From contig JAGWBS010000002.1 of NCBI GenBank assembly GCA_021295775.1, forward strand, positions 31,986-95,985: a stretch of 64,000 bases of DNA, written 5' to 3'. How positions within the stretch are numbered: the stretch's first letter is position 1; every line of letters begins with the position of its first letter. This document shows positions 9,400-37,977 of this stretch, piece after piece. Made by a program: the position numbers and the translations under genes. Below the pieces are notes generated by a model that saw nothing but the letters and a program-made list of their open reading frames with translations, was not told the origin of the DNA and searched no databases. This DNA comes from Pseudomonadota bacterium (GTDB lineage: Bacteria > Myxococcota_A > UBA9160 > SZUA-336).

Positions 9400-9404
9400 C
9401 CAGC

Positions 9405-22444: not shown

Positions 22445-23269
22445 GTGAGAGCGTCGCCGGCCTGGATCCTGATCGCCCTTCCGCTGCTCTGGGCCGCGCC
22501 TTCGGCCCCGGCCCAGCAGCCGGAAGCGGTCCAGGGACAGCCGGCAGCCGAGAGTTCCCCCGCCGCGGAGCGGGAGACCGCGGAACCGGCCGCTCCGCCC
22601 GCCGAAGGACGCACCCTCGCCGAGTGGTACGCCATGGGCGGCTGGGTCATGCACGTGCTGGTGGGCATGTCGGTGCTGAGCCTGATCGTCATCCTGGAGC
22701 GGTTCTGGTCGCTGCGACGCGGCGCAACGCTTCCGCGCGACTTTCTCGGCCAGTACCGCGACCACGCCCACCGCGGCGAACTGAAGCAGGTCGTGGAGCT
22801 CTGCTCCCAGTCGGACCACGCCGCGGCGCGCGTGCTGCGCTCGGGGCTGGTGCACTTCGACCAGGGGCTGGCCGACATGGTGGACGCCGCGTCGGTGGCC
22901 GGCGAGCAGGAGTCCGGCGGGCTGCGCCGCAACCTGCCCCTGCTGGCCGCGCTGGGAAACATGGCCACCATGCTGGGGCTGCTGGGCACGGTGCTGGGGA
23001 TGATCGAATCGTTCGACCTGATCGCCAAGACCGGCACCGGGGACGCGCGGGTGGTCGCCGGGGGGATCTTCCAGGCCCTGGTGACGACGGCCGCCGGGCT
23101 GATGGTCGGGCTGGTCGCCATCGGCGCGCACTCGCTGCTGCGCCGCAAGGCCGAAGGTCTCGAGGTCGAGCTGGTGGAGAAGTCCTCGCGCATGCTCGAG
23201 GACCTCTGGCTGAGGCGCGAGGCCTCCAAGCTGCCGCAGGGCGAGGCCAGCGAAGCGGCGGCGGGCTAG
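22445..23269 (+). CDS. exbB: MotA/TolQ/ExbB-family proton channel (ExbB-like) with N-terminal signal peptide and acidic/Pro-rich extension
   Basis: 274 aa. GTG start preceded by GAGGAG. N-terminus MRASPAWILIALPLLWAAPSAPAQ, then a linker. Family core: LPLLAALGNMATMLGLLGTVLGMIESF...GGIFQALVTTAAGLMVGLVAI. Confidence 0.85.
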   Translation: MRASPAWILIALPLLWAAPSAPAQQPEAVQGQPAAESSPAAERETAEPAAPPAEGRTLAEWYAMGGWVMHVLVGMSVLSLIVILERFWSLRRGATLPRDFLGQYRDHAHRGELKQVVELCSQSDHAAARVLRSGLVHFDQGLADMVDAASVAGEQESGGLRRNLPLLAALGNMATMLGLLGTVLGMIESFDLIAKTGTGDARVVAGGIFQALVTTAAGLMVGLVAIGAHSLLRRKAEGLEVELVEKSSRMLEDLWLRREASKLPQGEASEAAAG

Positions 23270-23272
23270 GCC

Positions 23273-23680
23273 GTGGCGCGCAACCGCGACGAGGACTCCG
23301 GCCTGGGGCTGACGCCGCTGGTCGACGTGGTCCTGCTGCTGCTGATCTTCTACATCGTCACGACCTCCTTCGTGGACCGGGAGATCGAACTCCGCCTGCC
23401 CGACTCCCAGGCGTCGGCGATCCCGGAGGAGAGGAAGAAGCTCACGATCGAGATCGGCCGCGAACCCGGCCAGCTCGCGCTCAACGGGGAGTCGCTCAGC
23501 GTCGAAGCCCTCGACCTGCGCATCGGCTCGGCCGCGCAAGCCGACGTCATCACCGCGGTCGAGATCCGGGCCGACCGCCTGGCGGTTCACGGCCGAGTCG
23601 TCGAAGTCCTGGGCATCGTCAAGAAGCACGGCGTCGACAACGTCGGAATCGCCGTGCGCCCGGTCGAAGCCCGCACCTGA
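23273..23680 (+). CDS. exbD: ExbD/TolR-family biopolymer transport protein
   Basis: 135 aa, starting 4 nt after the exbB stop. Its N-terminus LTPLVDVVLLLLIFYIV carries the conserved membrane Asp. Has an ExbD-like periplasmic domain. Confidence 0.85.
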   Translation: MARNRDEDSGLGLTPLVDVVLLLLIFYIVTTSFVDREIELRLPDSQASAIPEERKKLTIEIGREPGQLALNGESLSVEALDLRIGSAAQADVITAVEIRADRLAVHGRVVEVLGIVKKHGVDNVGIAVRPVEART

Positions 23681-23756
23681 AGGCAGCTTCGGAACACGCG
23701 TGCGAGAGCAGTTCGAGCCGGACCGGGGGAGAAACCGTCAGGTGGTCAGCGGATCC

Positions 23757-24623
23757 ATGAAGTCCCCCTCGCTTTCCCTGCTCGCGAGCCTCTTGTGCGC
23801 CTTGCTCGTCGCGGCCGGCTGCTCCGCCAAGCGGCCCGAACTCCCCAGTACGTCGACGCCGCAAGTCCCCTCCGAGATGCCCTCCTCGGAGCGCAGCGCC
23901 GAGGGCCCCTCCGGCGGCTCCGGCCAGCAGTCCGGCGGCGGCGCGAGCGCGGGAGCGGGGAGCGCATCCGGCGGCTCCGCCGGCCTCGGCGACGAACGCT
24001 CTTCCCTTGGCGTATCCCCACCACCCGGCTCCGGCGCGGGCGGGAGCGCCGGCCCGGGTTCCGAAGCTCCCACCGCCTCGCGGGACGGCTCCGGCGCAGG
24101 CCCGACCCGGACCGAGCGCATAGAGGTCCTGGACCGGCGTTACTACGGCGTGCTCAGCGGCGGTGGATCCGGTGGCGATCCCGGCGGCGGCAGCGGCGCG
24201 GGCGGATCGCACAGCGGCACCGCCGGCGACGGCGGCGACGGGACCGCCGGCGAAGACGGACTCTCCGCCTCGCGTCCCGCCCTGGGAGTGCGAGGCGGCG
24301 AGAAGTCCGGCCGCGACGGCGAGCCGTCATCCGCGGCCGCCTCCGGAGTCTCTGGCGGCGAAGACTCCGAAGCCGGTCCATCGACCGGCGACCAGAGCCG
24401 GCCCTTCGAAACTTCGGGCAGCGGCGCGAACCCGGAGGACATCCCGCCGGTCGACAACGACGACGAGTTCGCGCGCCAGCTCCGCCGCGCGGCGGAAACC
24501 GAGACCGACCCCGAGCGCCGGCGCAAGCTCTGGAACGAGTACCGTCGCTACAAGGGCTTGCCCGAGCGAGCGGAAACCCAGCAGAGTGAGGAGGACGAGA
24601 CTCCTCGAGGAGACGACTCATGA
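23757..24623 (+). CDS. Gly/Ser-rich low-complexity lipoprotein with conserved-looking charged C-terminal helix
   Basis: ATG at 23757 within track ORF 23700..24623. Lipoprotein signal MKSPSLSLLASLLCALLVAAGC. About 200 aa of G/S/A/P/D-rich sequence follow. C-terminus: DDEFARQLRRAAETETDPERRRKLWNEYRRYKG. High GC3 in this frame. Confidence 0.65.
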   Translation: MKSPSLSLLASLLCALLVAAGCSAKRPELPSTSTPQVPSEMPSSERSAEGPSGGSGQQSGGGASAGAGSASGGSAGLGDERSSLGVSPPPGSGAGGSAGPGSEAPTASRDGSGAGPTRTERIEVLDRRYYGVLSGGGSGGDPGGGSGAGGSHSGTAGDGGDGTAGEDGLSASRPALGVRGGEKSGRDGEPSSAAASGVSGGEDSEAGPSTGDQSRPFETSGSGANPEDIPPVDNDDEFARQLRRAAETETDPERRRKLWNEYRRYKGLPERAETQQSEEDETPRGDDS

Positions 24624-25843
24624 GAGAACAGCCCGGCCCGGCCGCGAGATCCCTGGCTCTGGTCCTCGCCGCCGCCGTCTTCTCCGCGGCTTGCGGCGCC
24701 ACGGCCACCGGCCCGGCCCCGTCGGTCGTCGGCCCGAAGAGTTCGACCCAGGCCGAAGCGGAGGCGTCCGCCCCCCTCGCCGGAGGCGGCACGCTCGAAG
24801 TCGTCGTGCCGGTCTTCGATCCCGGACTGCCCGAGGACGAATCTTCCGAGGTCGACAAGGGCGTTTTTCCCGAGCTGCGAAAAGCCGAGGCGGTGCGCTT
24901 CGCCCAGAAGCTCAGGCTGGAACTCGAGTCGACCCGCGCTTTCGAAACCGTGCGCGTGGTTCCCGACGCCGAGAGCGCCGCCGATCTCTACCTGCGAGGC
25001 GAGATCCTCCATTCGGACGGCGCGACCCTGAAGATCCGCTTGACCGCGGAGGACGCCTCCAACCGTCGCTGGCTCTCCGAAACCTTCTCCCGCAAGGTCG
25101 GCCCGAGGTTCTTCGAGAGCCCGCGCAACGCGGGGCAGGACCCCTACGACCCGCTTTTCGCCGAGGCCGCTGAGGCGGTGGCCGACAAGCTGCGAAAGCT
25201 CGACCCCGAGCGCCTGGCCGAAATCGAGCGGATCGGGGAGATCCGCTTCGCCCGCAGCCTCAGCGAAGAGGCCTTCGCGGACTACGGAGGCTGGAGAAAC
25301 CGGCAGTTCGTGCTGACCGGGTTCCCCGACGAGAACGATCCGATGCTCAAGCGCGCGCGCGCGGCGCGCGTCCGGGACCGCATGTTCGTCGACGACTGGC
25401 AGACCTGGTACGAGGGCTTCTCGGGGGAGATGGACGAGAGCTACCGGCAGTGGCAGGAGCAGAGCCTGACCGAGGTACTGGCGCACCGTCAGGCCCGCAA
25501 CGAAGCCATCGCCAAGGCCGTGGTCGGAGCCGTCCTGGTCGCCGGCGCCGCGGCCGCCGCATCGCAGGGGACGGACCTCGGCACGGCGGGCGCCGTCGTC
25601 GGCGGCGTGGGGGCGATCGCCGCCGCCGCCCAGGCGCTCGAAGCCCGCAGGCAGGCCAAATTCCACCGCGAAGCTCTGCACGAGATCGCACAGTCCATCG
25701 ACGCCGAAATGGCCCCGAACGTCATGCGGCTGGAGGAGCGCGAAGTGGAGCTGACCGGCAGCGCCGCCGAGCAGTTCCGTCAGTGGAGGGCTCTGCTGCG
25801 CGAAATCTACGCCGAGGAAGCCGTCCCCGACGTCGATCTCTGA
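24620..25843 (+). CDS. Lipoprotein with C-terminal Gly/Ala-zipper hydrophobic segment (unknown function)
   Basis: 407 aa. ATGA overlap with the upstream stop. Signal/lipobox LALVLAAAVFSAAC. Glycine-zipper-like AVVGAVLVAGAAAAASQGTDLGTAGAVVGGVGAIAAAA near the C-terminus. Confidence 0.7.
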   Translation: MREQPGPAARSLALVLAAAVFSAACGATATGPAPSVVGPKSSTQAEAEASAPLAGGGTLEVVVPVFDPGLPEDESSEVDKGVFPELRKAEAVRFAQKLRLELESTRAFETVRVVPDAESAADLYLRGEILHSDGATLKIRLTAEDASNRRWLSETFSRKVGPRFFESPRNAGQDPYDPLFAEAAEAVADKLRKLDPERLAEIERIGEIRFARSLSEEAFADYGGWRNRQFVLTGFPDENDPMLKRARAARVRDRMFVDDWQTWYEGFSGEMDESYRQWQEQSLTEVLAHRQARNEAIAKAVVGAVLVAGAAAAASQGTDLGTAGAVVGGVGAIAAAAQALEARRQAKFHREALHEIAQSIDAEMAPNVMRLEEREVELTGSAAEQFRQWRALLREIYAEEAVPDVDL

Positions 25844-25849
25844 GACCGC

Positions 25850-27328
25850 GTGCCTGACCCGACCAACGACCCGGACCCGCGCGGGAAATCCGAAGCTCTC
25901 GACGACGCCAACGAACGCGCCTGGGCACGGCGCGGGAGATATCTCGGCGGGGCCGCCGGGGTGCTGCTGGCGACCGTCGTCGCCGTCGTCGGGATGAGCG
26001 TGTTCTTCCCCGGCGCGGACGCTACCCACTCCGATCCCCCCGAAACCGAAGTTCCGCCGGAGTTGCCGGTTCCGGCCCCCTTTCCCGACCGCGAGGCCCG
26101 CGAACTCTTCCTGCAGGCGCTCGAGGACTACCGCGTCGGACCCAAGCCGGAAGTCGAGTCCGAGGCTTTCGCCGCCTGGAGTTCCGAGGCCCGGGCGCGT
26201 CTCGAAGCCGGCGAGAAGGCCGCGGTGGAGGCCTTCGCGAACAGCGCCTTCGGCGAGGCTCTGCGACTCCTGACCGAGACCGCCGAACGCGCCGAGCGCG
26301 AGCTGGAGTCCCGCGACACGGCCTTTCGCGAAGCCCTCGACGACGCCGAGACGGCCCGCGCGGCCGCGGATCACGCGCGCGCATCGAGCCGCATCGCTCA
26401 GGCCCTGAAATGGAAGCCCGCCGACCCCGAGGCGCAGGTCCTGGCCCGGCGAATCGACGAGCTGCCGGCGGTCGCCGAGGCACTGGAAGAGGCCCGCGTG
26501 GCGCGCGCAGAAAACCGCCCCCGGCGCGAACTCGAAGCCCTGCGCAAGGCCCTCGCCGCGGATCCCGACCGCCCCGACGCGAGAGCCCGGGCGGAAGCGA
26601 TCTTTCGGGATCTCGCCGCGAAACGCTACGCGCGCGCACTGAACCGGGGTCTCGCCGCCGCCTCGGCCGGGGACCTGGACCGCGCCCGGGCCCGGCTGGC
26701 CGATGCCCGGTCCCTCGCCCCCGACCGCGAAGAGACGCTCGCGCTCGAGCGCGAAGTGGAAGCTCTGGCCAGACGCGGCGAAGTCCGGCGCGCTTTCGAG
26801 CGCGCCGAAGCGGACGCGCTCGAAGACCGCTGGCGCGAAGCCGCCGCCGGCTACGCCGCCGTCCTGATGCAGGATCCCGTCCACGCCCCGGCTTCCGGAC
26901 GCCTGGACCGCGCCCGGGAAATTCTCGCCACCCGGGCAGCGGTCGAGGGGCTGCTCGCCCGGCCCGAGCGTCTCGCCGAGGCGGGGGCCGAGCGCGCGGT
27001 CGCCGCCCTGATCGAACGAGGTCTCGCGCTCTCGGCACACAGTCCGAGCCTGGCCGGCTCCCTGCGGGAACTCGGCCGCCAGAGCGAGCGCTACCGCAGA
27101 GAGATCAGCGTGCTCGTGATCTCTGACGGACGCACCAGCGTCGCCGTCCGCGGCCTCGGGCGCATCGGCGAGGTTGAAAACAAGTCTCTTCGGCTGCGCC
27201 CCGGCCGCTACACTTTCGAGGGTAGGCGCAAGGGCTATCGCGACAAGCTGGTCGCCGTCGCGCTGACTCCCGAGGACGACGGCCGGGAGATCGAGGTGAG
27301 CTGTGACATCCCTCTCGAAACCAGGTGA
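25850..27328 (+). CDS. Single-pass membrane protein with long Ala/Arg/Glu-rich helical (coiled-coil/TPR-like) region and C-terminal PEGA-like beta domain
   Basis: 492 aa with a GTG start. TM segment YLGGAAGVLLATVVAVVGMSVFF. About 330 aa of helical repeats follow. C-terminus ISVLVISDGRTSVAVRGLGRIGEVENKSLRLRPGRYTFEGRRKGYRDKLVAV resembles a PEGA domain. Confidence 0.65.
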   Translation: MPDPTNDPDPRGKSEALDDANERAWARRGRYLGGAAGVLLATVVAVVGMSVFFPGADATHSDPPETEVPPELPVPAPFPDREARELFLQALEDYRVGPKPEVESEAFAAWSSEARARLEAGEKAAVEAFANSAFGEALRLLTETAERAERELESRDTAFREALDDAETARAAADHARASSRIAQALKWKPADPEAQVLARRIDELPAVAEALEEARVARAENRPRRELEALRKALAADPDRPDARARAEAIFRDLAAKRYARALNRGLAAASAGDLDRARARLADARSLAPDREETLALEREVEALARRGEVRRAFERAEADALEDRWREAAAGYAAVLMQDPVHAPASGRLDRAREILATRAAVEGLLARPERLAEAGAERAVAALIERGLALSAHSPSLAGSLRELGRQSERYRREISVLVISDGRTSVAVRGLGRIGEVENKSLRLRPGRYTFEGRRKGYRDKLVAVALTPEDDGREIEVSCDIPLETR

Positions 27329-27410: not shown

Positions 27411-28487
27411 ATGCCCTTCCGACGCCGCGAGCCGCCCGGCACCAACCTCGCCCTGCTGGACGTGATGTCCTGCGGGCTCGGCGCCGTGATCCTGGTGCTG
27501 ATGCTCGCCAAGCCTCATCTGGCGACCACCGAGATCCCCGCCCAGGCCGAAGTCCTCGAGGCCGAACTGGTCGGCTTGAACGCCCGGCGCGAAGCGCTGA
27601 ACGCCGAGCTGGCCCGCGCCGAGAGCGAAGCCGAGCGCGAGCGCGTGCGCGTGCTGGCCCTGCGCCGGCGCAGCGGCGTGCTCGAGGCCCGCCGTCGCGA
27701 CCAGTCCCTCGAGACGGCGCAGCGGCGGAGTTCCCTGTCGGCGGTCGAGAGCCTGCTGGAAAACCGTCCGGACCCGCCGACCGCCCCGACGCCCGACACG
27801 GTCGAGTTGGAGGCCAACAACGAGGCCGAGTACCTGATCGGCCTGAAGGTCGAGGGCCGGCGCATCGCCATCCTGATCGACGCCAGCGCCTCGATGACCG
27901 AGGAGAGGCTGATCGAAGTAATCCGGCGCAAAACCGGCACGCCGGACGAGCGTCGCGCCGGCCCCAAGTGGCAGCGCGCCCGCCGCGTCCTGCGCTGGCT
28001 CCTGGCCCGCCTCCCCCCCGACTCCCAGGTCGCGGTCCTCACCTACGCGGAGAAGGCCGAGTTCCTGGGCGAGCAGCGCTGGACGGACGCCTCCGATTCC
28101 GCGGCCCTCGGCGCTCTGGCCGTGGCGCTCGACGAGGTCGATCCCCGGGGTCCGACGAACTTCCGCGCCGGTCTCGACGCCGTCTGGGCGGAGCGTCCCG
28201 ACAGCCTCTACGTGGTCACCGACGGCCTGCCCACCCAGGGACGCGAGAGGAGCTTGCCCCGCCGATTCCTGAGCGGGATCAAGGGCGGCTGCGGGAACTC
28301 GAACACCATCTCGGGGGAATGCCGCCGGGCGCTGATGAACGAGGCCATCGACCGGAACTGGAACGGGCGGGTCGCGAACGCCATCCTGCTGCCGCTCGAA
28401 GGCGATCCCGAAGCTCCGGCGGTCTACGCGAACTGGACGAGAGGCACGGGCGGGCGCCTGCTCGCGCCGAGCCCGGACTGGCCATGA
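27411..28487 (+). CDS. ExbD/TolR/MotB-like Asp-TM anchor + coiled coil + VWA (MIDAS) domain protein, paralog 1
   Basis: 358 aa. N-terminus MPFRRREPPGTNLALLDVMSCGLGAVILVLMLA is a short basic tail followed by LLD at the start of a single TM helix. Coiled coil: EAELVGLNARREALNAELARAESEAERERVRVLALRRR. VWA domain with MIDAS DASAS (IAILIDASASM), a later T (GPTNF) and D (VVTDG). Confidence 0.75.
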   Translation: MPFRRREPPGTNLALLDVMSCGLGAVILVLMLAKPHLATTEIPAQAEVLEAELVGLNARREALNAELARAESEAERERVRVLALRRRSGVLEARRRDQSLETAQRRSSLSAVESLLENRPDPPTAPTPDTVELEANNEAEYLIGLKVEGRRIAILIDASASMTEERLIEVIRRKTGTPDERRAGPKWQRARRVLRWLLARLPPDSQVAVLTYAEKAEFLGEQRWTDASDSAALGALAVALDEVDPRGPTNFRAGLDAVWAERPDSLYVVTDGLPTQGRERSLPRRFLSGIKGGCGNSNTISGECRRALMNEAIDRNWNGRVANAILLPLEGDPEAPAVYANWTRGTGGRLLAPSPDWP

Positions 28488-29455
28488 GACGGCGGCGGCG
28501 CGCGTTCGACGTCTTCAGCATCTCGTTTCTGGACGCGATCGCCTGCGGTTTCGGCGCGGTGATCCTGCTGCTGATCGTCAGCCTGAACGCCGACCGCGCT
28601 CCGGCGGGAGCCCCGCCCGATGTCTCCGCCCTGCTCGACTCGGCCGTCGAAACCCGCCTCGAGACCACCGCCCTGAAAGAGCGTCTGGAACTCAGCCGGT
28701 CGGTGGACGCCGATGCCCGCGCCGAGGCGGCGGAACTCGAAGCGCGCATCCTCGCGGCGAGGGCCGCCTACGAAGCCGACCGCCGGGAAGCCCAACGGCT
28801 CGAGCGCCGACTGGCGAAGCTCATCCCGCCCGAAGAGCGCCCGGCCAGCGCCGCCACGCGCACCCCGGGCCCGGCGGAGGAACGCGACGACGAAGTGGGC
28901 GGGATCCCCGTCGGCAGCGAGTACGTGATCTTCGTGATCGACACCTCGGGATCGATGCGGAGCATCTGGGAAAAGGTCGTCGGGCGCCTCGAAGCCGTGA
29001 TCGACGCCCACCCGACGGTCAGCGGCTTTCAGGTCGTCAACGACAACGGCACCTACCTGCTCCCCGCGTACAAAGGGCGCTGGATCTCGGACACCCCCTC
29101 GCGCCGCCGCAGCGTCAAGAAAATGCTCCGGAATTGGAACAGCCTGTCCAACAGCAGTCCCGTCGAAGGCCTCGAAGAGGCCCTGGAACGCTACGCCCGT
29201 CCCGGCCGCAGGCGCTCGGTGTATGTATTCGGCGACGAGTACACCGGCGGCTCGTACGACGTGGTGCTCGATTCGCTGGAGCGCCACAATCGGGACCCGG
29301 TCAGCGGGCAACCGCTGGCGGAGGTTCACGCCCTGGGCTTCTTCTCGACCGCGGGGGCGACGAGCGCGAGCTACCTGCTGTCGTCGGCGCGTTTTTCGAT
29401 CCTCATGCGCGAGGTCGTGCGGCGCAACCGGGGAACCTACCTGACCGTGCCCTGA
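28484..29455 (+). CDS. ExbD/TolR/MotB-like Asp-TM anchor + coiled coil + VWA (MIDAS) domain protein, paralog 2
   Basis: ATG at 28484 (ATGA overlap with the paralog 1 stop), in frame within track ORF 27968..29455. N-terminus MRRRRRAFDVFSISFLDAIACGFGAVILLLIVS. Coiled-coil segment present. MIDAS DTSGS (VIFVIDTSGSM). 323 aa. Confidence 0.75.
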   Translation: MRRRRRAFDVFSISFLDAIACGFGAVILLLIVSLNADRAPAGAPPDVSALLDSAVETRLETTALKERLELSRSVDADARAEAAELEARILAARAAYEADRREAQRLERRLAKLIPPEERPASAATRTPGPAEERDDEVGGIPVGSEYVIFVIDTSGSMRSIWEKVVGRLEAVIDAHPTVSGFQVVNDNGTYLLPAYKGRWISDTPSRRRSVKKMLRNWNSLSNSSPVEGLEEALERYARPGRRRSVYVFGDEYTGGSYDVVLDSLERHNRDPVSGQPLAEVHALGFFSTAGATSASYLLSSARFSILMREVVRRNRGTYLTVP

Positions 29456-29518
29456 TGCCCGGAGCGGGCTTGGCGACCCGACCTCGCGCCGGCGGGGGCG
29501 CGTGGCAGGGACGCCGTC

Positions 29519-30301
29519 TCAGCCAGTCCCGTCGGGATCGGGGGCTGGAAGCGCGCTGATGCGCCCGACCAGCACCTCGTCGCAGTAGCGGCGGGTGTCG
29601 ATCACCAGGCCGTCCTGCAGGCGCTGAAGCTGGTGCAGGAAGAACATCAGCACGATGCTGATCAGCAGCGCCACCAGGGTCGAGTTGAAGGCCAGGCCCA
29701 GACTCTCGGTCATCGCGAAGATGTCGCCCGCCAGCGCCTGGTCCGCCTGGGACAGCGCCCGCCCGATGCCGCGCACGGTGCCGATGAAGCCGATCGAAGG
29801 GATCGCCCAGATCAGGTAGCGGATCAGCGAGTTCTCGGCCTCCTGCTGGGCCGCCAGAGCGTCCACGCCGGCCTCGATCGCCTCGGAGGCGTTCTGCACG
29901 TCGCGCTGGACCGCGAAGCGCCGCAGACCGGCGGCCAGCGTCTGGACCAGGGGCGTGCGCCAGACGTCGGGGCGCTGGCGTCCCAGCTCCTCGAAGCTCC
30001 GGACGGCCCGGGCGGGATCGCCCGAGACGTCGGTGTCCTCGAGCAGGTCGGTGTCGAACAGGTACTGCTGGCGCAGGATCGTCCGGTACTTGTCGAAGAT
30101 CAGGAACAGCCCCCAGACCATCAGCACCAGACAGATTTCCTGCTCGTAGTCCTTCAGTACGATCCAGAGATTGCGCGGAGTCGCCATGCCCGCCTCCATG
30201 GCGGCCTCGATCGACCGCTCTGCCTGGGGGCGGACCCAGCCCAGGTAGGCGGCGTGGATCCCGACGATGGAGGCGGCCAGGGCGGCCAGGCTTCGAAACA
30301 T
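29519..30301 (-). CDS. MotA/TolQ/ExbB-family proton-channel protein, 4-TM MotA-like topology (orphan stator A-subunit)
   Basis: 260 aa. Four hydrophobic helices with a cytoplasmic insert between TM2 and TM3. Family core: LIWAIPSIGFIGTVRGIGRAL...ESLGLAFNSTLVALLISIVLMFFLHQL. Confidence 0.75.
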   Translation of the reverse strand: MFRSLAALAASIVGIHAAYLGWVRPQAERSIEAAMEAGMATPRNLWIVLKDYEQEICLVLMVWGLFLIFDKYRTILRQQYLFDTDLLEDTDVSGDPARAVRSFEELGRQRPDVWRTPLVQTLAAGLRRFAVQRDVQNASEAIEAGVDALAAQQEAENSLIRYLIWAIPSIGFIGTVRGIGRALSQADQALAGDIFAMTESLGLAFNSTLVALLISIVLMFFLHQLQRLQDGLVIDTRRYCDEVLVGRISALPAPDPDGTG

Positions 30302-30302
30302 T

Positions 30303-30431
30303 TCAGATGTCCACCGGGAAGGTCGTGGGCGAGTTCAGACTGAGGCGCCCCTGCGCGATCGCCACCCCGGCCGCCGCGGCGGCCGTCACGGCCAGGGCGA
30401 CCAAGAGCCAGAGAATGCGCCGACGCTGCAT
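30303..30431 (-). CDS. 42-aa single-pass membrane micro-protein (not in ORF track)
   Basis: Hand translation gives MQRRRILWLLVALAVTAAAAAGVAIAQGRLSLNSPTTFPGDI*. GGAGGA lies 6 nt upstream of the ATG (30431). It starts 9 nt after the upstream stop (30441), and its own stop is 1 nt before the MotA-like ATG (30301). High GC3. Confidence 0.5.
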   Translation of the reverse strand: MQRRRILWLLVALAVTAAAAAGVAIAQGRLSLNSPTTFPVDI

Positions 30432-30440
30432 GGTCTCCTC

Positions 30441-32420
30441 CTATAGATAGCGGCCGATGCGAAAGCCTAGGTCATCCCGGCGGCCGCCGAACCCTTCGCG
30501 GCGGGCGGCGCGAAGTCCGCTGCGCGTCCCCGTGCGCCAGCTCGCTCCCTTGACCACGTGAACGCTTCCGTAGCCGGGACCCAGGGGGTCGATTTCGACC
30601 GATCCCGGGGCCGGAGGCTCGAGCAGATAGAAGTCGTGGACCCACTCGCTGGCGTTGCCGGTCAGGTCGAACAGTCCCGAGCGCTCGGGCGCGAAGCTGC
30701 CGACCGGGGCGAGCCGGGCGAATCCGTCCGAGTAGCGGGGGACGTAGGTTTCGACCGACCCCTTGGCAGTCTCGTCGGCGACGTTGCCCACTCCGGACGG
30801 CAGCGTATCCGAGTCGCCCCAGGGAAAGACCGTCCGGCGCCCGCGCCCGGCCTGCCGCGCCAACCACTCCCACTCCGCCTCGGTCAGCAGGCGGTAGCCG
30901 TCCGGCGGATCCTGGCCTCCTCCCGCGTGGGCGTAGAACGGAGTCAGGCCCTCCCGGACGCTCAGCCAGTCGCAGAACGCCACCGCCTCCGCCCAGGAGA
31001 CCGAGGTCGCGGGGTGGTCGCCCCGCTCCCCGGGGTGCCCGGGGCGGAAGCTGCGGAACTGCTCCAGGCTGACTTCGTGCAGTCCGGCGTAGAACGGCCG
31101 GCTCAGCCGGACGTCGCGCTCGAACTCGTTGGCGCGCTGTCCCTTCTCGCCGCGCGGATCGCCCATCCGGAACGCCCCCGCCGCGCCGGGATTGAGCAGC
31201 ACCAGGCTCGCGCCGACGGAGTTGGTGTAGCGGACGGGCGCGCGCGCCAGCCGCGCCTCCCGCTCGGTCAGCAGGGTCTCCCGCAGCAGCGTGGCCCGCT
31301 CGGGGTCCGGAGCGAGCGTGCGGCGGACCGTCTCGTAGCCGCGGCGCTGCAGCTCGATCCGCGTTTCCTGCGCCGGCAGAACCAGATCGAGGGGGGTCCG
31401 GCCGGCGGGCTCGCCGTCGATCCGCACCTCGGAAACGGGATCGGATTCGATCCGCGCGCGCCCGGTCTTGCGGGTCAGGTGCAGCTCCAGGGTCCGCGTC
31501 TCCCCCCGGTCGAGGGTCGCGTGCAGGGTGCGGGGAAAGTAGCCCTCCAGCGAGTAGCGCACGCTGTGCTCGGCGTGCGCCGCTACGCGCTCGGGATTCG
31601 AGGCGCGGAATCCGTCGACCAGCAGCAACCCTCCCGCTGGGGACAGGTCGAAGCGCAGCTCGGCGGAGGGAGGGACCAGGCGGTAGTTGCGGCGGGCCAG
31701 GGGCCGGTCGCGGGTCAGCTCCAGCGTGTCGCGGACGGGCGCGTAGCCCGGCAGTCGGAGCGCGACCGGATAGCGCCCCGCGGGCAACTCCCGCTCCAAA
31801 GGCGTCGGCAGGGGGTCGAGGCCTTCGATCTCGACCGACGCCCCGCTCGGCTCGGAGCGCAGTTCGAGCCGTCCCCGGGCGCGACTCAGCGGCAACGAGA
31901 CCTCCAATCGGGCGCCCCGCTCGACCTGGATGTCGAGGTCGGCGATCTCGTACCAGTCGTGGCGGGCGGAGAGACGGTAGGCTCCGGCGTGCAGTTCGTG
32001 CTCCAGGAGCGCGCCGATGCCCGCCAGCGCGTCGTCCACGTACCAGCGTGTTTCCACCTCGGGAGGATGCGTGGAAGCGTGGACCCGTCCGGGCAGCGGC
32101 TCGAGCGCGACGCTCAGGGTCCGGCCGGGGGTGTGGATCGGCAGCGTCCTGGCGGCGAACCCGGGTGCCGAAACGCGAACCTCCAGTTCGCCCCCGAGAT
32201 CGTAGACCCGGCCCAGGATCACCAGCGCCCAGCCGGACGCGAGTTCGATCCGGGCGTTCTCCGACGCCTCCGGGGGTTGCACCTCGACGGGCGTGCCGCG
32301 CGTCAGCGCCAGCGTCACGCCCAGCACCAGCGCGCCGACCGCCAAGCCCAGCGCGGCGTAGAGGGAGCGGAGCCACCAGCGCCTCTGCACCCTTCGAAGC
32401 TGGCGTTCAGTGGGAGACAT
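30441..32420 (-). CDS. Membrane-anchored PEGA-repeat protein with C-terminal FGE-sulfatase-like (SUMF1/GldK-like) domain lacking the FGE cysteine pair
   Basis: 659 aa. TM segment WWLRSLYAALGLAVGALVLGVTLAL. At least 3 PEGA-like units (e.g. LRSEPSGASVEIEG...LPAGRYPVALRLPGYAPVRDTLEL; IESDPVSEVRIDGEPAGRTPLDLVLPA...LQRRGYETV). FGE-like C-terminus: HPATSVSWAEAVAFCDWL...YRLLTEAEWEWLAR...GNASEWVHD...VVKGASWRTGTRSGLRAARRE...DLGFRIGR. No Cys occurs where FGE has its CxxxxC. Confidence 0.8.
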   Translation of the reverse strand: MSPTERQLRRVQRRWWLRSLYAALGLAVGALVLGVTLALTRGTPVEVQPPEASENARIELASGWALVILGRVYDLGGELEVRVSAPGFAARTLPIHTPGRTLSVALEPLPGRVHASTHPPEVETRWYVDDALAGIGALLEHELHAGAYRLSARHDWYEIADLDIQVERGARLEVSLPLSRARGRLELRSEPSGASVEIEGLDPLPTPLERELPAGRYPVALRLPGYAPVRDTLELTRDRPLARRNYRLVPPSAELRFDLSPAGGLLLVDGFRASNPERVAAHAEHSVRYSLEGYFPRTLHATLDRGETRTLELHLTRKTGRARIESDPVSEVRIDGEPAGRTPLDLVLPAQETRIELQRRGYETVRRTLAPDPERATLLRETLLTEREARLARAPVRYTNSVGASLVLLNPGAAGAFRMGDPRGEKGQRANEFERDVRLSRPFYAGLHEVSLEQFRSFRPGHPGERGDHPATSVSWAEAVAFCDWLSVREGLTPFYAHAGGGQDPPDGYRLLTEAEWEWLARQAGRGRRTVFPWGDSDTLPSGVGNVADETAKGSVETYVPRYSDGFARLAPVGSFAPERSGLFDLTGNASEWVHDFYLLEPPAPGSVEIDPLGPGYGSVHVVKGASWRTGTRSGLRAARREGFGGRRDDLGFRIGRYL

Positions 32421-32440
32421 CGCAGACGATCGGGTTCGGC

Positions 32441-33553
32441 TCAGTAGACGAGATCCGTATCGGTAATCTCCTGGCGGACCAGCCGGCCCTCGCGGTAGTA
32501 GGACGTGACCTCGACATCCCCATCGCCGTTCAGGTCCTCTTCCTTGCGGGCCAGGACCGGCCGGGCTGGGTCGTCGCCTTCATAGTATTCCCAGACGTCG
32601 GAACGTCCGTCTTCATTCGCGTCGATCTCGGCGCGCTCCGGGAAACCGGAAAGATCGTAGAAGGTACGGATCTCCATCCCGCCGGAAAAATCCCGGTCTT
32701 CCAGCTCGATGGCGCGACGCCGGCCCTCGTACTCCACCCGCCGGTCGATGCTTCCGTCGTTGTTGGTGTCGTGCTCCTCGTCGGTCAGCCAGCCGTTCGC
32801 GTAGCGGAACAAGCCGTCGCGGACCCCGTCGAAGTCCCGGTCGACCACGACCCGCGTCGCGCGGCCGTCCGCGCCGTACTCGGTCCAGCGGTCCGGCATC
32901 CCGTCGTGGTTGGTGTCCTGTTCGCGAGAGGCGATCCCGCCGGAGCCGTGGTAGGCGTTGACCGTGTCGAAGCGGCCGTCGTAGTCGGTGTCCTCCAAAC
33001 GCGCGAGCAGGGCGCCGCTGCGCGCGTCGTGCTCGATGCGGATTTCCGGATTCCCGTCGCGGTCCGCGTCCAGCAGCTTGACCAGCAGCTCCTGTTCGCC
33101 GACGCGGTGAAGTTCGCGTTCGAAGATGGATTCCGGCAGATCCCGCTCGACCGGTGCGCGCGGAGCTGCCAGCGGATCGACGGACGCCCGGGGCTCGGCG
33201 CCGCCCGCGGCGGCCGCCCCGCTGCGAGCCAGCTTCTCTTCGCGTCGGATCTGCTCCAGCAGCTCTTCCTGCCGCCGGAGTTCGGCCTCGATCTCGTCCT
33301 CCAGCGCCCGCTGGCGCCAGAGTTCGCCCTCGATCTCGGCTTCCAGGATTTCTTCGGAGCGAGCGCTGCCCTGCTGGCTGCGGACGGGCAGGCTTCCGTC
33401 GTCCCCCCGGCGCTCGGTCGCGGCGAAAGGCACCGAGGGGCCGAACGCAGCCGCGCTGGCGGCTCCGGCGCTCCCGGCCGGGGCGCCTCCGAGCAGCGCA
33501 GCCAGCAGCCAGACGGGGGTGGAGAAGGGCGCTGCAGGGCTACGAATGCGCAT
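32441..33553 (-). CDS. Secreted coiled-coil protein with 8 Dx[DN]xDG-type repeats (short paralog of the giant repeat protein)
   Basis: Start trimmed to ATG at 33553, preceded by GGAGGCGGAGGAA. Signal-like N-terminus MRIRSPAAPFSTPVWLLAALLGGAPAGSAGA. Acidic coiled coil: EILEAEIEGELWRQRALEDEIEAELRRQEELLEQIRREEK. Repeats such as DTDYDGRFDTV, DTNHDGMPDRW, DTNNDGSIDRR, DANEDGRSDVW. Confidence 0.7.
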   Translation of the reverse strand: MRIRSPAAPFSTPVWLLAALLGGAPAGSAGAASAAAFGPSVPFAATERRGDDGSLPVRSQQGSARSEEILEAEIEGELWRQRALEDEIEAELRRQEELLEQIRREEKLARSGAAAAGGAEPRASVDPLAAPRAPVERDLPESIFERELHRVGEQELLVKLLDADRDGNPEIRIEHDARSGALLARLEDTDYDGRFDTVNAYHGSGGIASREQDTNHDGMPDRWTEYGADGRATRVVVDRDFDGVRDGLFRYANGWLTDEEHDTNNDGSIDRRVEYEGRRRAIELEDRDFSGGMEIRTFYDLSGFPERAEIDANEDGRSDVWEYYEGDDPARPVLARKEEDLNGDGDVEVTSYYREGRLVRQEITDTDLVY

Positions 33554-33613
33554 TTCCTCCGCCTCCCGGCACCGGGCTCGAAAAGCTAGCACGCGCCCGG
33601 GCCGCGGCCCGGG

Positions 33614-36600
33614 CTATCGCTTCCAGAAATCGCTGAACCCGCCGCAGCTCAGCGCCCCGAATTCCTTCGTTCCCGTGGGCGCCGCTTCGCCGTCGACCTC
33701 TACCGCCCGCTCGCTGGCCAGGTCGAAACGCACGTCCACGCGGCCGTCGAAGTCGCGGTCCTCGGCCTGCACGCTGGGGGCGCCAGCGGCGTAATCGACC
33801 CAGACGTCCGGGCGGCGGTCGGCATTGGTGTCCGCCTCCATGCGCAGCGGCACCCCGTCCTCGTACAGGTTGCGGCGGTCGCCGTAGCCGTCCCGGCTCG
33901 AGTCCTCGACGCTGACCCGGATCACGCCCGCTTCGTACTCGATCCGGGTGCGCGGCGTGCAGCGCCACTGTGCGTTGCCCTCGGCGTCGAAGCGCGTGAG
34001 CCGGTCCGGGAGGCCGTTGCAGTTGCGGTCCTCCTCCTGGGCGGCGATCCGCTCGCCGTCGAAGAGGAAGACGATGTTGGGGCGGGTGCAGCTCCCGCGG
34101 GCCTCGGCCTGGATCCGCTTGACGCCGCCTTCCAGGTGCTCCCAGACATCGATCCAGCCGTTCTGGTTGGTGTCCCGCTCCACGCGCCGGACCTCGCCGC
34201 CGGCCAGGAAGGTGAAGGTGTCGTAGGCGCAGTCTCCGTCGCTGTCCACGGCGTCCTCGACCACCTGCCCATCCGGTGAGAAACGCTGCCGGTGATCCAG
34301 GCAGCCCGCCCCCCGGTCCTCCTCGAGTTCCGCGGCCACGCCGTCCGCGAAGCGCGTCACGCGCTCGGGCTCGCCGTCCTCGTCCAGGTCTTCGATCCGC
34401 TCGCGGGGCTCGCCGGCGGCGTCGAAGACGAGGCTCAGGTCGGGCTCGCCGTTGGCGTCGGTGTCGCGCCGCTCCAGGGCGATCTTCCCGTCCGGGGCGA
34501 GGTCGAGCCAGCGGTCGACCCGGCCGTCGGCGTCGGTGTCGTGCTCCTGGCGCAGCTCGACCCCCGCCTCGAGGTAGACGCGGACGTCGAAGCGGCCGTC
34601 GCCGTCGGTGTCCCTGCGGACTTCGCGCGGTTCCGACTCGCCCGCGGCGTAGAGATCGATCTTGTCCACCCGGCCGTCGGCGTCCGCGTCGGACTCGACC
34701 CGCGAAAGCGCGCCATCGAGGTAGTGGGAGACGGTCTCGAAGCGGCCGTCGCCGTCGAGGTCCGATTCCTGCCGCGCGAGCCGCCCGTCCTCGTAGTGGG
34801 ACAGACTGTCGAACTCGCCGTCGAAGTCGGTGTCCGAGCGCAGGCGAACTTGAACGCCGTGCCGGAATTCGCCGATGTGGTCGTCCCGGCCGTCGAAGTC
34901 GCGGTCCTCGGCCTGGCCGGTCTGAATCCCCTGCGCGTAGGTCTTCGCGGCATCGGTGCGGCCGTCGCCGTTGGTGTCCACGCGCTCGAGCCGCGGGCGG
35001 CCCGCGGCGTCGAACTCGGTCCACTGGTCGAAGGCGCCGTCGCCGCTCGCATCCCGCATCTGGCGGGCGATACGGCCCGCCTCGAACTCGCTGACCGCCT
35101 CGGCGAAGCCGTCGCCGTCGGCGTCGCGCTCCTCGCGCACCCGCCTCTCTCCGCTGTCGTCGTAGAGCGTGGACACCTCCGGGACGCCGTTTCCGTCGGC
35201 GTCGAGTTCGACCCGCGCGCGGCGCTCCCGGCGATAGTGGACGATCGCCTCGAAGACGCCGTCGAAGTCCTCGTCGCTGAAATCGCGGGCGATGGAACCC
35301 TGGGCGTCGTATTCGGCGCGGTAGTCCACTCGGCCGTCGAAGTTGCGGTCCTCCGTCAGCCCCGCGGCGAGTTCGCCCGACAGCCGCGCGGTCCGGTCCG
35401 GCTCCCCGTCGCCGTTGGTGTCGGTCTCCACCCGAGTGCGCGCGCCGCCGGCGTAGTCCGTCCAGGTGTCCACCCGGCCGTCGCCGCTGGTGTCCTCCAG
35501 CACGCGCTGGGGCTCGCCGGAAACCGGGTCGAGCATCACCCACTGGTCGGGCTGGCCGTCGCCCCGCGTGTCGCGCTCCTGCTTGTGCATGCGGCCGTCC
35601 TCGAAGAAGCTCCACAGGTCCGTGCGGCCGTCGAAATCCTCGTCCAGGAACTGCTGCAGCGGCCGGCCGTCCCGCAGCTTCTCCGTGAAGTCGACGCGAC
35701 CGTCGGCGTTGCGGTCCTGTTCGCGCTCGCTGGGCTGGCCGTCCGCGAAGCGCGTGCGCAGTTCGAGCGCGCCGTCGCCGTCGCTGTCCTCGCGCTGCTC
35801 GGCGAGCTGCCCCGCGAGGAAGTCGTACTCCACGTCCACGCGACCGTCGTAGTCGCGGTCCTCGCGCTGGACCGAGCGCTGGCCGCCCGCGAACTCCACC
35901 CAGGTGTCGACCGCACCGTCCGCGTTGGTGTCGCGCTCGCTGGCGACCTTGGCGCCGTCGCGGTAGCGATCGTCCACGTCGGCCGTTCCGTCGCCGTCCG
36001 CGTCGCGCGTCTCGCGCTCCAGCGCGTCGTCCCGGTATTCGCGCCAGACGTCGAAGACGCCGTCGGCGTCGCTGTCGATCTCCTCGCGGACCCGCACTTC
36101 CCGCTCGTCGTAGTGGACCGCGATCTCTATCCGACCGTCGCTGTCCGCGTCGCGTTCCTGGCGCACCCGCCGGCCGTCCCGGAAAAACAGCAGCGTCTCG
36201 TGGCGGCCGTCGTGGTCCACGTCGACCTCCTCGCGCGCGAGCGCCTCGCCCCGGTAGTGGCCGATCCGGTCGGGCGAGCCGTCGCCGCTGGTGTCTTCCT
36301 CGGTGCGGATCTTGAGCCCCTCGGCGTAGTGGATGCGCAGGTTAAGCTCACCGTCGCCGGTCGTGTCCTGCTCCTCGAGCTGCTTGTTCCCCTGGGCGTC
36401 GAAGGTCGAAAGCGCCTCAGGCCGGCCGTCTTCGTCCGGGTCGAGCCACTTCTGGTAGACCCGGTCGCCGCGGTACAGGGTGACGTCGTTCGGCTTGCCG
36501 TTGCCGTCGGGATCCCGTTCCAGCCGCGTCCGGACGCCCGCCTCGAAATACAGGTGGGTGTCCGGTCGTCCGTCGAAGTCGCTGTCGTCCCGCTGCAGCG

Positions 36601-36931
36601 AAGGCCTTCCCTCGGCGTCCAGGTCCACCCAGCGGTCGGGCCGGCCGTCGCCCGAGCGGTCCTCTTCGACGCGGATCTCCCGGCCGTCCTCGAAGAAGCG
36701 CCACTGGTCGACCCGGCCGTCGCGGTCGCCGTCCAGCTCGATGCGCTCGATCTCCCCGTCCAGGAAGTGGTCCCAGCGGTCGGGGGAGCCGTCCCCGTCG
36801 AGGTCCGCGACCTGCCGCAGAAGTTGTCCGGTCGCGGGGTCGAACTCGCGAACCACCCCCGCCCGGGCCAGGTCGGGCCCGAACGCCGACAGCAGCAGGC
36901 CAGCGGCGCAGGCCCGAGCGATCACGGGCAC
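33614..36931 (-). CDS. Giant secreted tandem-repeat protein (about 1105 aa, about 40 Dx[DN]xDG Ca-loop-like repeats, Cys-containing C-terminal region)
   Basis: Lies in the frame of track ORF 33614..38071, whose part upstream of 36931 overlaps tonB in another frame and is junk. Candidate starts are GTG at 36931 (VPVIARACAAGLLLSAFGPDLARAG, signal-like) or GTG at 36925 (GTGA overlap with the tonB stop). Repeat period is about 24-25 aa, e.g. EEDRSGDGRPDRWVDLDAEGRPSLQR / ERDTNADGAVDTWVEFAGGQRSVQR. Confidence 0.75.
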   Translation of the reverse strand: MPVIARACAAGLLLSAFGPDLARAGVVREFDPATGQLLRQVADLDGDGSPDRWDHFLDGEIERIELDGDRDGRVDQWRFFEDGREIRVEEDRSGDGRPDRWVDLDAEGRPSLQRDDSDFDGRPDTHLYFEAGVRTRLERDPDGNGKPNDVTLYRGDRVYQKWLDPDEDGRPEALSTFDAQGNKQLEEQDTTGDGELNLRIHYAEGLKIRTEEDTSGDGSPDRIGHYRGEALAREEVDVDHDGRHETLLFFRDGRRVRQERDADSDGRIEIAVHYDEREVRVREEIDSDADGVFDVWREYRDDALERETRDADGDGTADVDDRYRDGAKVASERDTNADGAVDTWVEFAGGQRSVQREDRDYDGRVDVEYDFLAGQLAEQREDSDGDGALELRTRFADGQPSEREQDRNADGRVDFTEKLRDGRPLQQFLDEDFDGRTDLWSFFEDGRMHKQERDTRGDGQPDQWVMLDPVSGEPQRVLEDTSGDGRVDTWTDYAGGARTRVETDTNGDGEPDRTARLSGELAAGLTEDRNFDGRVDYRAEYDAQGSIARDFSDEDFDGVFEAIVHYRRERRARVELDADGNGVPEVSTLYDDSGERRVREERDADGDGFAEAVSEFEAGRIARQMRDASGDGAFDQWTEFDAAGRPRLERVDTNGDGRTDAAKTYAQGIQTGQAEDRDFDGRDDHIGEFRHGVQVRLRSDTDFDGEFDSLSHYEDGRLARQESDLDGDGRFETVSHYLDGALSRVESDADADGRVDKIDLYAAGESEPREVRRDTDGDGRFDVRVYLEAGVELRQEHDTDADGRVDRWLDLAPDGKIALERRDTDANGEPDLSLVFDAAGEPRERIEDLDEDGEPERVTRFADGVAAELEEDRGAGCLDHRQRFSPDGQVVEDAVDSDGDCAYDTFTFLAGGEVRRVERDTNQNGWIDVWEHLEGGVKRIQAEARGSCTRPNIVFLFDGERIAAQEEDRNCNGLPDRLTRFDAEGNAQWRCTPRTRIEYEAGVIRVSVEDSSRDGYGDRRNLYEDGVPLRMEADTNADRRPDVWVDYAAGAPSVQAEDRDFDGRVDVRFDLASERAVEVDGEAAPTGTKEFGALSCGGFSDFWKR
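33725..36805 (-). repeat. Protein-level tandem repeat array (about 40 units of roughly 72-75 nt) inside the giant CDS; boundaries approximate
   Basis: By-eye enumeration of 40 clear and 3 degenerate units, each with E-x-D-x-[DN]-x-DG-x-x-D-x-[WF/aliphatic]...G. The units are divergent at the DNA level, so this is not a simple nucleotide repeat. Confidence 0.7.
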
Positions 36932-37977
36932 CGATCCGGATCCGGGCAACTTCCGTCTTGAGTGAAGATCAGGCGCATCGGCTTGTTCACGATGTAGTGG
37001 ATGCTCGTGGGCGGAGGCGGAAAGGGGCTGGCGTGCCGGAACGCCCGGCTGGCCGTCTCGCCCAGCAGCGTGTCGGTGATTCGCGCAACCTCCACGTCGT
37101 GCGCGGATCCGCCGCGGTCCAGCCGGAAGCTCAGCGTCACCTGGCCGTCGCCCAGTTCGGGGGGCACGGACCAGCGCTCGTACACGCGCCGGCGGATCCG
37201 CTCCAGGTACTCCACGCAGACGGGGTCGGCCATGCAGTCTCTCTGCTCTCCGACCAGCGCGCCGCGACGGCCCGCGCCGTCGAGCAGCGCCCGGGAATCC
37301 CCGACCTCGACGTCGGCCACGCGCGCGCCGATCACGTCGCCTTCGACGGCGTTGTCGGCGATCACTCCGCGCGCGACGTTCGGAGCCGAGACCAGCGCGG
37401 GGCGCGGGCTGACCTCGGGGGAAGCGGCCTCCATCAGCCTCGGGCCGCGGGTCGTCGGCGCGGCCCGCACGCGGGTGACCTCGGCGCTCGCGGCCCGGGG
37501 AATCCGCTTGGGCTGCGCCACGGGTCGCTCGGAGAATACGCTCAGCGCGCGGGCCTCGACCTGCATCCGGCGGGGAGAGGCGGTCACGGCGGTGCGCGTG
37601 ACTTCGGCGAGCTGGGTGCTTTCCAGCCGCTCGACCCGGCTCTTCTCCACGATCTCCGGCTGATGGGTCGGCCGGTGGCGGATCACGCTGGCGTCCGGCA
37701 CGCGCTGCGCGAGCCGCTTGCGCCGCAGCTCGGGCGGCTGGGGCACGGGCTCGGGCTCGAACACCCGCACCAGCACGACCTCCTCCCGGGGGAGAACCGC
37801 GCCCAGGATCACGTTCCAGAACGCCGCCAGCAGCGCCAGGTGCAGGCCGATCGACACCACTGCGATCGCCCAGCGGGGCACCCGCCCGCCGCGATCGTCG
37901 AGCGGGTCGTAGCGGGGGACGCTCGCGGCGATCTCCGGCCCGAGGGGGCCGCTGGCCAGGGGACTCGCGCTCGCCAT
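36922..37977 (-). CDS. tonB: TonB-family energy transducer
   Basis: 351 aa. N-terminal anchor RWAIAVVSIGLHLALLAAFW contains the SxxxH motif (SIGLH). Pro-rich stretch EPEPVPQPPE. C-terminal TonB_C-like domain: YLERIRRRVYERWSVPPELGDGQVTLSFRLDRGGSAHDVEVA...ASRAFRHASPFPPPP. Confidence 0.8.
   Translation of the reverse strand: MASASPLASGPLGPEIAASVPRYDPLDDRGGRVPRWAIAVVSIGLHLALLAAFWNVILGAVLPREEVVLVRVFEPEPVPQPPELRRKRLAQRVPDASVIRHRPTHQPEIVEKSRVERLESTQLAEVTRTAVTASPRRMQVEARALSVFSERPVAQPKRIPRAASAEVTRVRAAPTTRGPRLMEAASPEVSPRPALVSAPNVARGVIADNAVEGDVIGARVADVEVGDSRALLDGAGRRGALVGEQRDCMADPVCVEYLERIRRRVYERWSVPPELGDGQVTLSFRLDRGGSAHDVEVARITDTLLGETASRAFRHASPFPPPPTSIHYIVNKPMRLIFTQDGSCPDPDRCP

Follow-up and report, generated by a model that had tools for sequence, protein, structure and literature searches.

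We analysed a 64,000-nucleotide stretch (hereafter the window; overall GC content 71.6%) of contig JAGWBS010000002.1 from the Pseudomonadota assembly GCA_021295775.1. The analysis centred on a minus-strand gene for a TolQ/ExbB-like membrane protein and on the small open reading frame (micro-ORF) directly upstream of it. By direct reading of the sequence, the micro-ORF starts with ATG and ends with a TGA codon 1 nt ahead of the TolQ-like ATG. It is preceded, across a 4-nt spacer, by a GGAGGA motif which overlaps the TAG stop codon of the next gene upstream, encoding a PEGA/FGE-like protein. Two genes for proteins with von Willebrand factor A (VWA) domains, VWA1 and VWA2, lie on the opposite strand. 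They converge on the TolQ-like gene, with 63 nt between the stop of VWA2 (29455) and that of the TolQ-like gene (29519). An original prediction made from the window alone had described the channel gene, the micro-ORF, the GGAGGA motif and the 63-nt gap, and we found all of them in the sequence. The micro-peptide ending ...TFPGDI given there is a transcription slip, as the sequence reads ...TFPVDI. A scan of positions 29300-32700 for promoters and terminators was uninformative. The genes and features at the centre of the locus are as follows, where MIDAS stands for metal-ion-dependent adhesion site.

29519-30301, minus strand: TolQ/ExbB-like ring subunit of a putative 5:2 motor, 260 amino acids (PF01618, alignment invariants, AlphaFold 2 model, ExbB/TolQ fold).
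30303-30431, minus strand: micro-protein gene, 42 codons; a signal-peptide-like N-terminus, MQRRRILWLLVALAVTAAAAAGVAIA, followed by QGRLSLNSPTTFPVDI with the conserved tail ending FPVDI-COOH (sequence, related loci, selection pattern).
30436-30441, minus strand: GGAGGA ribosome-binding site of the micro-ORF (direct reading; kept in the relative L081).
30441-32420, minus strand: PEGA/FGE-like protein, membrane-anchored and periplasmic (PF08308 and PF03781, synteny).
27411-28487, plus strand: VWA1, 358 amino acids, with the N-terminal transpore-type helix …LALLDVMSCGLGAVIL… (Asp17) and MIDAS residues D157, S159, S161, T249 and D271 (Pfam VWA_2, AlphaFold 2 model, Foldseek).
28484-29455, plus strand: VWA2, 323 amino acids, a paralogue of VWA1, with the helix …FSISFLDAIACGFGAVIL… (Asp17) and a head carrying DTSGSM…GD (weak Pfam VWA matches, conservation).

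A scan of one genome per species yielded at least 556 confirmed loci with related genes. From these, 80 were taken with 10-kb flanks, and one locus from a relative 86% identical to the window (L081) was added, giving the 81 loci to which the counts below refer. A further locus, L082, is 90% identical to the window, and L083 is the window's own contig. The sampled loci cover Alpha-, Beta-, Gamma- and Zetaproteobacteria, Desulfobacterota and Binatia. When searched by tblastn with the window proteins, they showed a usual, co-directional order: p307, p407, p492 (transmembrane/TPR), PEGA/FGE-like, micro-ORF, TolQ-like, VWA1 and VWA2. In 78 of the 81 loci the PEGA/FGE-like gene immediately precedes the micro-ORF, and in 77 the TolQ-like gene is followed by VWA1 and VWA2 in the same orientation. 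VWA1 follows the TolQ-like gene immediately in 63 loci; one gene intervenes in 14, and in three the contig ends first. The 14 loci form a clade of Porticoccaceae/Woeseiaceae type, and their intervening gene has about 430 codons. It encodes a cytoplasmic protein (for example L063 10778-12085 and L073 10778-12130, within the L060-L080 clade), which in L073 carries an FHA domain at its C-terminus. The clade with this protein is also the one that carries a long acidic version of the micro-protein.

The block of PEGA/FGE-like gene, micro-ORF and TolQ-like gene is inverted and relocated behind VWA2 only in the window, L081 and L082. Since these three are independent assemblies that share the rearranged order (the window being represented by L083), the rearrangement is genuine and lineage-specific. 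The channel gene had been described as an orphan that might find its partners in trans. Because the inversion is limited to the window and its closest relatives, this orphan state is a matter of local gene order and not a property of the system. Neither do the homologues of the TolQ-like gene in these loci adjoin a conventional MotB/ExbD gene: the cluster contains no exbD or tolR gene, its genes are contiguous and leave no room for one, and tblastn with the window ExbD found nothing in the 81 loci. Apart from its gene order, the window locus is an ordinary member of a predicted TolQ-like/VWA family.

We then considered whether the micro-ORF is a gene. At the GC content of the window a 42-codon open reading frame by itself means little. 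Its third codon positions are G or C in 39 of 42 codons (0.93), and the range for the real genes of the window is 0.83-0.96. The encoded micro-protein reads MQRRRILWLLVALAVTAAAAAGVAIAQGRLSLNSPTTFPVDI, with the C-terminal stretch …ISLNSPVSFPVDI-COOH. An ORF ending in [FYLI]-P-x-[DNE]-[IM]-stop is present between the FGE-like and TolQ-like genes in 78 of 80 evaluable loci from several phyla. Both exceptions look like sequence or assembly errors: L010 has the motif …SFPVDI with its stop read through (upstream of position 10001), and L067 has a shifted frame in a duplicated, error-prone stretch (9141-9781). The consensus of the last 13 residues is I-S-L-N-S-P-[VAT]-S-F-P-V-D-I. Counted from the C-terminus, proline at -4 is found in all 78 sequences, isoleucine at -1 in 77, aspartate at -2 in 72 (asparagine in the other six) and phenylalanine at -5 in 72. 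Hydrophobic and polar residues alternate along the tail, as in an amphipathic β-strand. Comparison of the window with L081 gave seven synonymous and no non-synonymous changes in the last 16 codons, and three synonymous changes together with six conservative hydrophobic replacements in the first 26. The micro-ORF pointed out in the original prediction is thus genuine and conserved, and it is a core gene of the system.

A profile search recovered at least 570 micro-protein clusters at 90% identity, and the best 120 matches are all 44-71 amino acids long. At 50% identity there are 219 representative clusters, and the matches listed reach the extreme C-terminus of proteins of 30-109 amino acids, except for one spurious low-complexity match. 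Lengths across the two sets run from 30 to 115 amino acids. No fusion to a larger protein was found among the 219 representative clusters or the best 120 of the 570 matches. Scans of five micro-proteins against Pfam and NCBIfam, with E values of up to 10 allowed, produced no family model, the only matches being noise caused by the hydrophobic segment. The micro-ORF is called as a gene in public assemblies, where it is named only "hypothetical protein" (for example WP_170826984.1 of Magnetovibrio blakemorei). Full-text searches of the literature with the tail motif returned no paper with relevant context, and those with the gene combination returned only PMC12204202. These results indicate that a near-universal small-protein family of the TolQ-like/VWA system has so far gone undescribed, and that the C-terminal tail is its conserved part.

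The hydrophobic segment of the micro-protein is, as originally proposed, not a MotB/ExbD-type helix. Across the 78 sequences the N-terminal part is not conserved in sequence, yet it always opens with basic residues and continues into a hydrophobic stretch. Nearly all of the sequences combine a basic n-region with an h-region and with small residues at -3 and -1, and these small residues stand just ahead of the tail in an A-x-A pattern (AYA/Q, AVA/Q, AWA/G and VYA/G, with AIA/Q in the window). The segment therefore looks like a cleavable Sec signal peptide. Since it is signal-peptide-like and conservation is confined to the tail, the micro-protein is more likely to be secreted than to stay in the membrane as a micro-subunit. 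The membrane micro-subunit of the original prediction is probably wrong, given the n-region, the h-region, the A-x-A site and the restriction of conservation to the C-terminal tail. Such a subunit would be an uncleaved, membrane-anchored protein whose helix lies beside the TolQ-like ring as the TonB or TolA helix does, with the tail acting as a plug or assembly factor at the periplasmic face. This version, essentially the earlier view, draws on the main-clade h-regions of 18-21 residues, on linkers of 6-10 residues that would keep the tail at the membrane surface and on the tight translational coupling to the TolQ-like gene. We consider it unlikely: the hydrophobic segment holds no conserved residue and nothing like the SHLS motif, and conserved small residues precede the tail at -3 and -1. 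In addition, the 14-locus clade has classical signal peptides of 15-17 residues, followed by 50-90 acidic disordered residues before …EEISEDFxVxFPVDI, which disfavours a fixed membrane-proximal geometry.

The micro-protein begins with a putative export signal, continues with a variable linker and ends in a conserved stretch of about ribosome-tunnel length, and its gene lies directly upstream of a membrane-protein gene. This layout also recalls regulatory nascent peptides of the SecM, MifM and VemP type, which monitor export or otherwise stall. In that case the last 13 or so residues would adjust translation of the TolQ-like gene from within the ribosome tunnel, and the released peptide would have no function. 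Such a peptide would also fit the selection pattern, in which amino acids are kept while synonymous codons change freely. Several features make this explanation a very improbable one. Main-clade micro-proteins are 35-55 amino acids long, so the ribosome would still enclose the signal sequence as the tail is made, and an export-dependent pulling force would be impossible. In 47 of the 78 loci the micro-ORF stop lies -4 to +4 nt from the TolQ-like start, and a stalled ribosome would cover the next start. The identity of the stop codon varies, and the downstream gene does not encode an export factor. Finally, the tail motif is unrelated to known arrest motifs; to our knowledge it resembles none of them, including those of the RAGP and RAPP types.

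Next, we analysed the protein encoded by the gene that follows. The TolQ-like protein matches the Pfam family PF01618 (MotA_ExbB) with an E value of 1e-13 over residues 116-233, and its own family comprises at least 7,917 database proteins at E ≤ 1e-3, among which many come from marine metagenomes and share about 60% identity with it. As sequence searches of the PDB with the family profile gave no meaningful matches, a comparison of folds was needed. The AlphaFold 2 model (predicted local distance difference test score, pLDDT, 76) has its best PDB matches in ExbB and TolQ, with template modelling (TM) scores of 0.6-0.7, and reaches only about 0.4 with MotA and PomA (Foldseek). The channel had been called MotA-like; membership in the MotA/TolQ/ExbB family holds, while the fold is nearer to ExbB/TolQ than to MotA/PomA. 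The alignment contains two conserved C-terminal helices, GFIGTVRGI with an invariant T175 and FNSTLVAL with an invariant T208, and in the model, which is of a single chain, both threonines lie in helices that align with the inner helices of ExbB/TolQ. The model and the alignment also reveal an extra N-terminal helix (residues 2-36) relative to ExbB/TolQ, in which His16, Tyr19, Gly21, Arg24 and Pro25 are all invariant. A conserved histidine in an N-terminal membrane helix recalls the SHLS helix of TonB/TolA outside the ring, and by this analogy the extra helix could be a built-in equivalent. Longer homologues of about 300 amino acids were considered as possible fusions with the micro-ORF and rejected, as their extra length consists of a cytoplasmic insert and a C-terminal tail.

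In both VWA families a basic N-terminal stretch leads into the motif F-L-D-[IV]-[MI]-x-C-G-[LF]-G-A, behind which comes a hydrophobic run. The aspartate of this helix is invariant in 63 of 63 VWA1 and 78 of 78 VWA2 sequences. The AlphaFold model of VWA1 (mean pLDDT 82) has a membrane helix at residues 15-32, a 74-residue helix at 44-117 and a confident α/β head at 151-350. This head matches MIDAS-type VWA domains, namely those of CLCA1, BatB, integrin I domains and the anthrax toxin receptor (Foldseek). The MIDAS residues are conserved throughout both families, as D-x-S-x-S…T…D in VWA1 and DTSGSM…GD in VWA2. The C-terminus of VWA1, …P…WP-COOH, is invariant in all homologues, and this invariance suggests that it too may dock somewhere. 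A heterologous pair of "transpore-helix VWA" proteins next to a TolQ-like protein has been predicted computationally, and AlphaFold 3 models put the aspartate of the VWA helix within the threonine ring of the TolQ-like pentamer (PMC12204202; Mol Biol Evol 2025). The proposed pairing of the channel with the VWA proteins is thus supported, and it was already in print as a prediction; the same-strand neighbourhood in 77 of the 81 loci and the invariant aspartates speak for it as well.

The window also holds a conventional pair, ExbB (22445-23269, plus strand; PF01618, E 1.5e-24) and ExbD (23273-23680, plus strand; PF02472, E 3.8e-24). It lies 20-77 nt upstream of p307 and on the strand of VWA1 and VWA2, which leads one to ask whether in this genome the VWA proteins use the conventional ExbB, or the TolQ-like protein the conventional ExbD, so that the TolQ-like/VWA pairing would be wrong here. 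We regard this as barely credible, because the two genes form a full pair of their own, because none of the 81 other loci has them, that of the 86%-identical relative included, and because the TolQ-like, VWA1 and VWA2 genes are contiguous almost everywhere.

The cluster further contains three genes on the plus strand:

25850-27328, plus strand: p492, membrane-anchored, TPR-like in homologues (tblastn synteny, 69 loci).
24620-25843, plus strand: p407, predicted lipoprotein (…FSAAC…) with no known domain (sequence; synteny, 68 loci).
23700-24623, plus strand: p307, predicted lipoprotein (…VAAGC…) (sequence; synteny, 59 loci).

Homologues of p492 in L063 and L064 have TPR matches. Those of L081 (13188-14867, minus strand) and L082 (5389-7098, minus strand) carry an N-terminal DnaJ (J) domain which is absent from the window copy, L028, L063 and L064. 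Among the homologues from L001 to L081, p307 varies, and the one strongly conserved part is a motif at the C-terminus, P[ED]DIPxxDND….QIRxAA..E.DP…..LWNEYRKYKGLP. In addition to its Pfam domains, the PEGA/FGE-like protein has a weak match to the NCBIfam model of GldK. Its C-terminal domain of the FGE-sulfatase fold lacks both catalytic cysteines (C336 and C341 of human FGE align with threonine and glycine, respectively), and to judge from this alignment it has the FGE fold but is not an FGE. The protein matches PorK at 2e-14 and is about as similar to PorK/GldK as to true FGEs. Together, the PorK/GldK-like FGE-fold protein and the two lipoproteins point to an envelope-spanning assembly.

Directly upstream of the PEGA/FGE-like gene, the window has a gene for a protein with a TonB/TolA C-terminal domain (36922-37977, minus strand), followed by two Asp-rich repeat proteins (33614-36913 and 32441-33592, both minus strand). 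The latter have about 1,080 and 383 amino acids, DxDxDG-like repeats and no Pfam match. The TonB-like and Asp-rich genes may now be co-transcribed with the relocated block. A tblastn search of the 81 loci with the window ExbB, ExbD, TonB-like protein, M28 peptidase and Asp-rich repeat proteins found nothing conserved, and we therefore treat them as neighbours and not as parts of the system.

Comparison with known systems places the locus closest to the putative TolQ-like/TPH-vWA motor (PMC12204202), which likewise has a tolQ-like gene without tolR or exbD, an adjoining heterologous pair of membrane-tethered vWA proteins, a conserved aspartate in their N-terminal helix and hosts among the Proteobacteria. 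Unlike in that system, the VWA pair of the window is on the opposite strand, through the rearrangement. We equated the window family with the Idiomarina-seeded set of that paper from its description there. The text of the paper does not mention a micro-protein, PEGA or sulfatase/FGE domains, and we found no discussion of the lipoproteins or the TPR protein in it; all of these are as conserved as the motor genes. The ExbB-ExbD-TonB and TolQ-TolR-TolA systems share with the locus the Pfam family, the best structural match, the threonine-bearing inner helices and the aspartate-bearing partner helix. They differ in that the periplasmic part of the window partner is a coiled-coil stalk with a VWA head instead of an ExbD/TolR domain, the two partners are different paralogues and the ring protein has its extra helix. 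The conserved cluster also has no third subunit of the TonB/TolA type, and the TonB-like protein at 36922-37977 occurs in no related locus. MotAB and PomAB stators resemble the system in a probable four-helix membrane topology with the N-terminus inside and in the 5:2 logic. They are set apart by the weaker fold match, and we found neither a MotB-type partner with an OmpA-like peptidoglycan-binding domain nor a flagellar context.

The GldKLMN/PorKLMN proteins of type IX secretion offer a parallel in gene order, since a gene for a catalytically dead FGE-fold protein directly precedes the motor genes and the succession FGE-like, ring, axle mirrors porK-porL-porM. In contrast, the window ring is a true TolQ/ExbB homologue and not GldL/PorL, there are no GldM or GldN and no type IX secretion genes, and the host bacteria lie outside the Bacteroidota; the likeness may come from nothing more than the FGE-fold domain that both have. 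Aerotolerance-type BatA and BatB proteins are similar in their N-terminally anchored periplasmic VWA domains, in the presence of BatB among the fold matches and in the TPR proteins of their operons. However, Bat operons have no TolQ-like ring, and Bat anchors lack the F-L-D…C-G-x-G-A motif. To Zorya there is a weak match with ZorA over the common MotA/ExbB helices (E 0.001), whereas the window cluster lacks ZorB, ZorC, ZorD and the long ZorA tail. A role as a defence system was considered and rejected, as PADLOC gave this weak ZorA match alone and no other in the cluster.

Taken together, the locus is probably a rearranged version of an eight-gene envelope system that is widespread and has a proton-driven motor of the 5:2 type at its centre, with the micro-protein as an exported core component. 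In this model the TolQ/ExbB-like protein would form the ring and a VWA1/VWA2 heterodimer the axle. Each VWA protein would place its N-terminal helix, with the essential-looking aspartate, inside the ring and carry its MIDAS-containing head into the periplasm on a long helical stalk. The inversion and relocation of the block behind VWA2 in the lineage of the window would mean that the partners come from two convergent transcripts and assemble in trans. The micro-ORF would be translationally coupled to the TolQ-like gene, and its product would be exported by Sec, most likely with cleavage after A-I-A, leaving about 16 residues. The near-invariant amphipathic tail would then dock on a periplasmic component of the same machine. 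The PEGA/FGE-like protein, the TPR protein and the two lipoproteins, periplasmic or lipid-anchored, would probably form the structure on which the heads act.

Some observations weigh against this model. The case for the motor and for its stoichiometry comes from homology and from published structure predictions. Sequence homology of the VWA helix with ExbD/TolR was not demonstrated: PF02472 did not match VWA1 or VWA2, even when the N-terminal parts were scanned up to E 10, hhalign aligned only three columns with the window ExbD, and a PDB profile search with the VWA helix found nothing. The ExbD-likeness of the helices thus comes down to their position, the aspartate and a short L-x-D-V pattern only. 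Main-clade h-regions have a length that is high for signal peptides, and they may instead serve as uncleaved anchors. Furthermore, the receptor of the tail is a guess. Our preference, held weakly, is the MIDAS face of a VWA head, contacted by the aspartate at -2, the terminal carboxylate or both, because VWA domains typically bind a carboxylate of their ligand. The PEGA/FGE-like protein is the next candidate. Coordination of the metal by the aspartate is not favoured as the key contact, since the six loci with asparagine at -2 keep an intact MIDAS in both VWA1 and VWA2. Covariation between tail variants (VNI, SNI, TNI, ENM and others) and the MIDAS of VWA1 or VWA2 gave no signal, as the MIDAS is invariant everywhere.

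A more specific proposal is that the secreted peptide is an obligatory part of the motor. After cleavage it would have about 15-20 residues (a longer, acidic form in one clade), and its invariant …SFPVDI-COOH end would plug into the MIDAS of a VWA head, in the manner of integrin ligands that end in …AGDV-COOH or contain LDV. There it might serve as a handle on which the motor pulls, or as a diffusible switch controlling when the heads engage their outer-membrane target. We put this forward as a rather doubtful possibility. If it were true, a secreted-peptide subunit would be of a kind not known in any 5:2 motor.

Ion-driven 5:2 motors (MotAB, ExbBD, TolQR, GldLM and ZorAB) are few machines that power very different processes of the cell envelope, and the VWA-headed motor would be a further widespread class, so far only predicted. 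What the present analysis adds is that the motor genes sit in a fixed cluster of eight, and that one of these encodes a tiny, predicted exported protein with a near-invariant C-terminus, no less conserved than the motor itself. The locus is also a cautionary case, in which a subunit seemed orphaned through a lineage-specific inversion while its partners lay 63 nt away on the other strand. Made synthetically, the C-terminal peptide of the micro-protein would be a cheap experimental handle for pull-downs, competition and structural work, and cultured carriers of the system exist in Magnetovibrio (M. blakemorei MV-1), Methylophaga, Pseudoalteromonas (P. xiamenensis) and Glaciecola (sp. KUL10).

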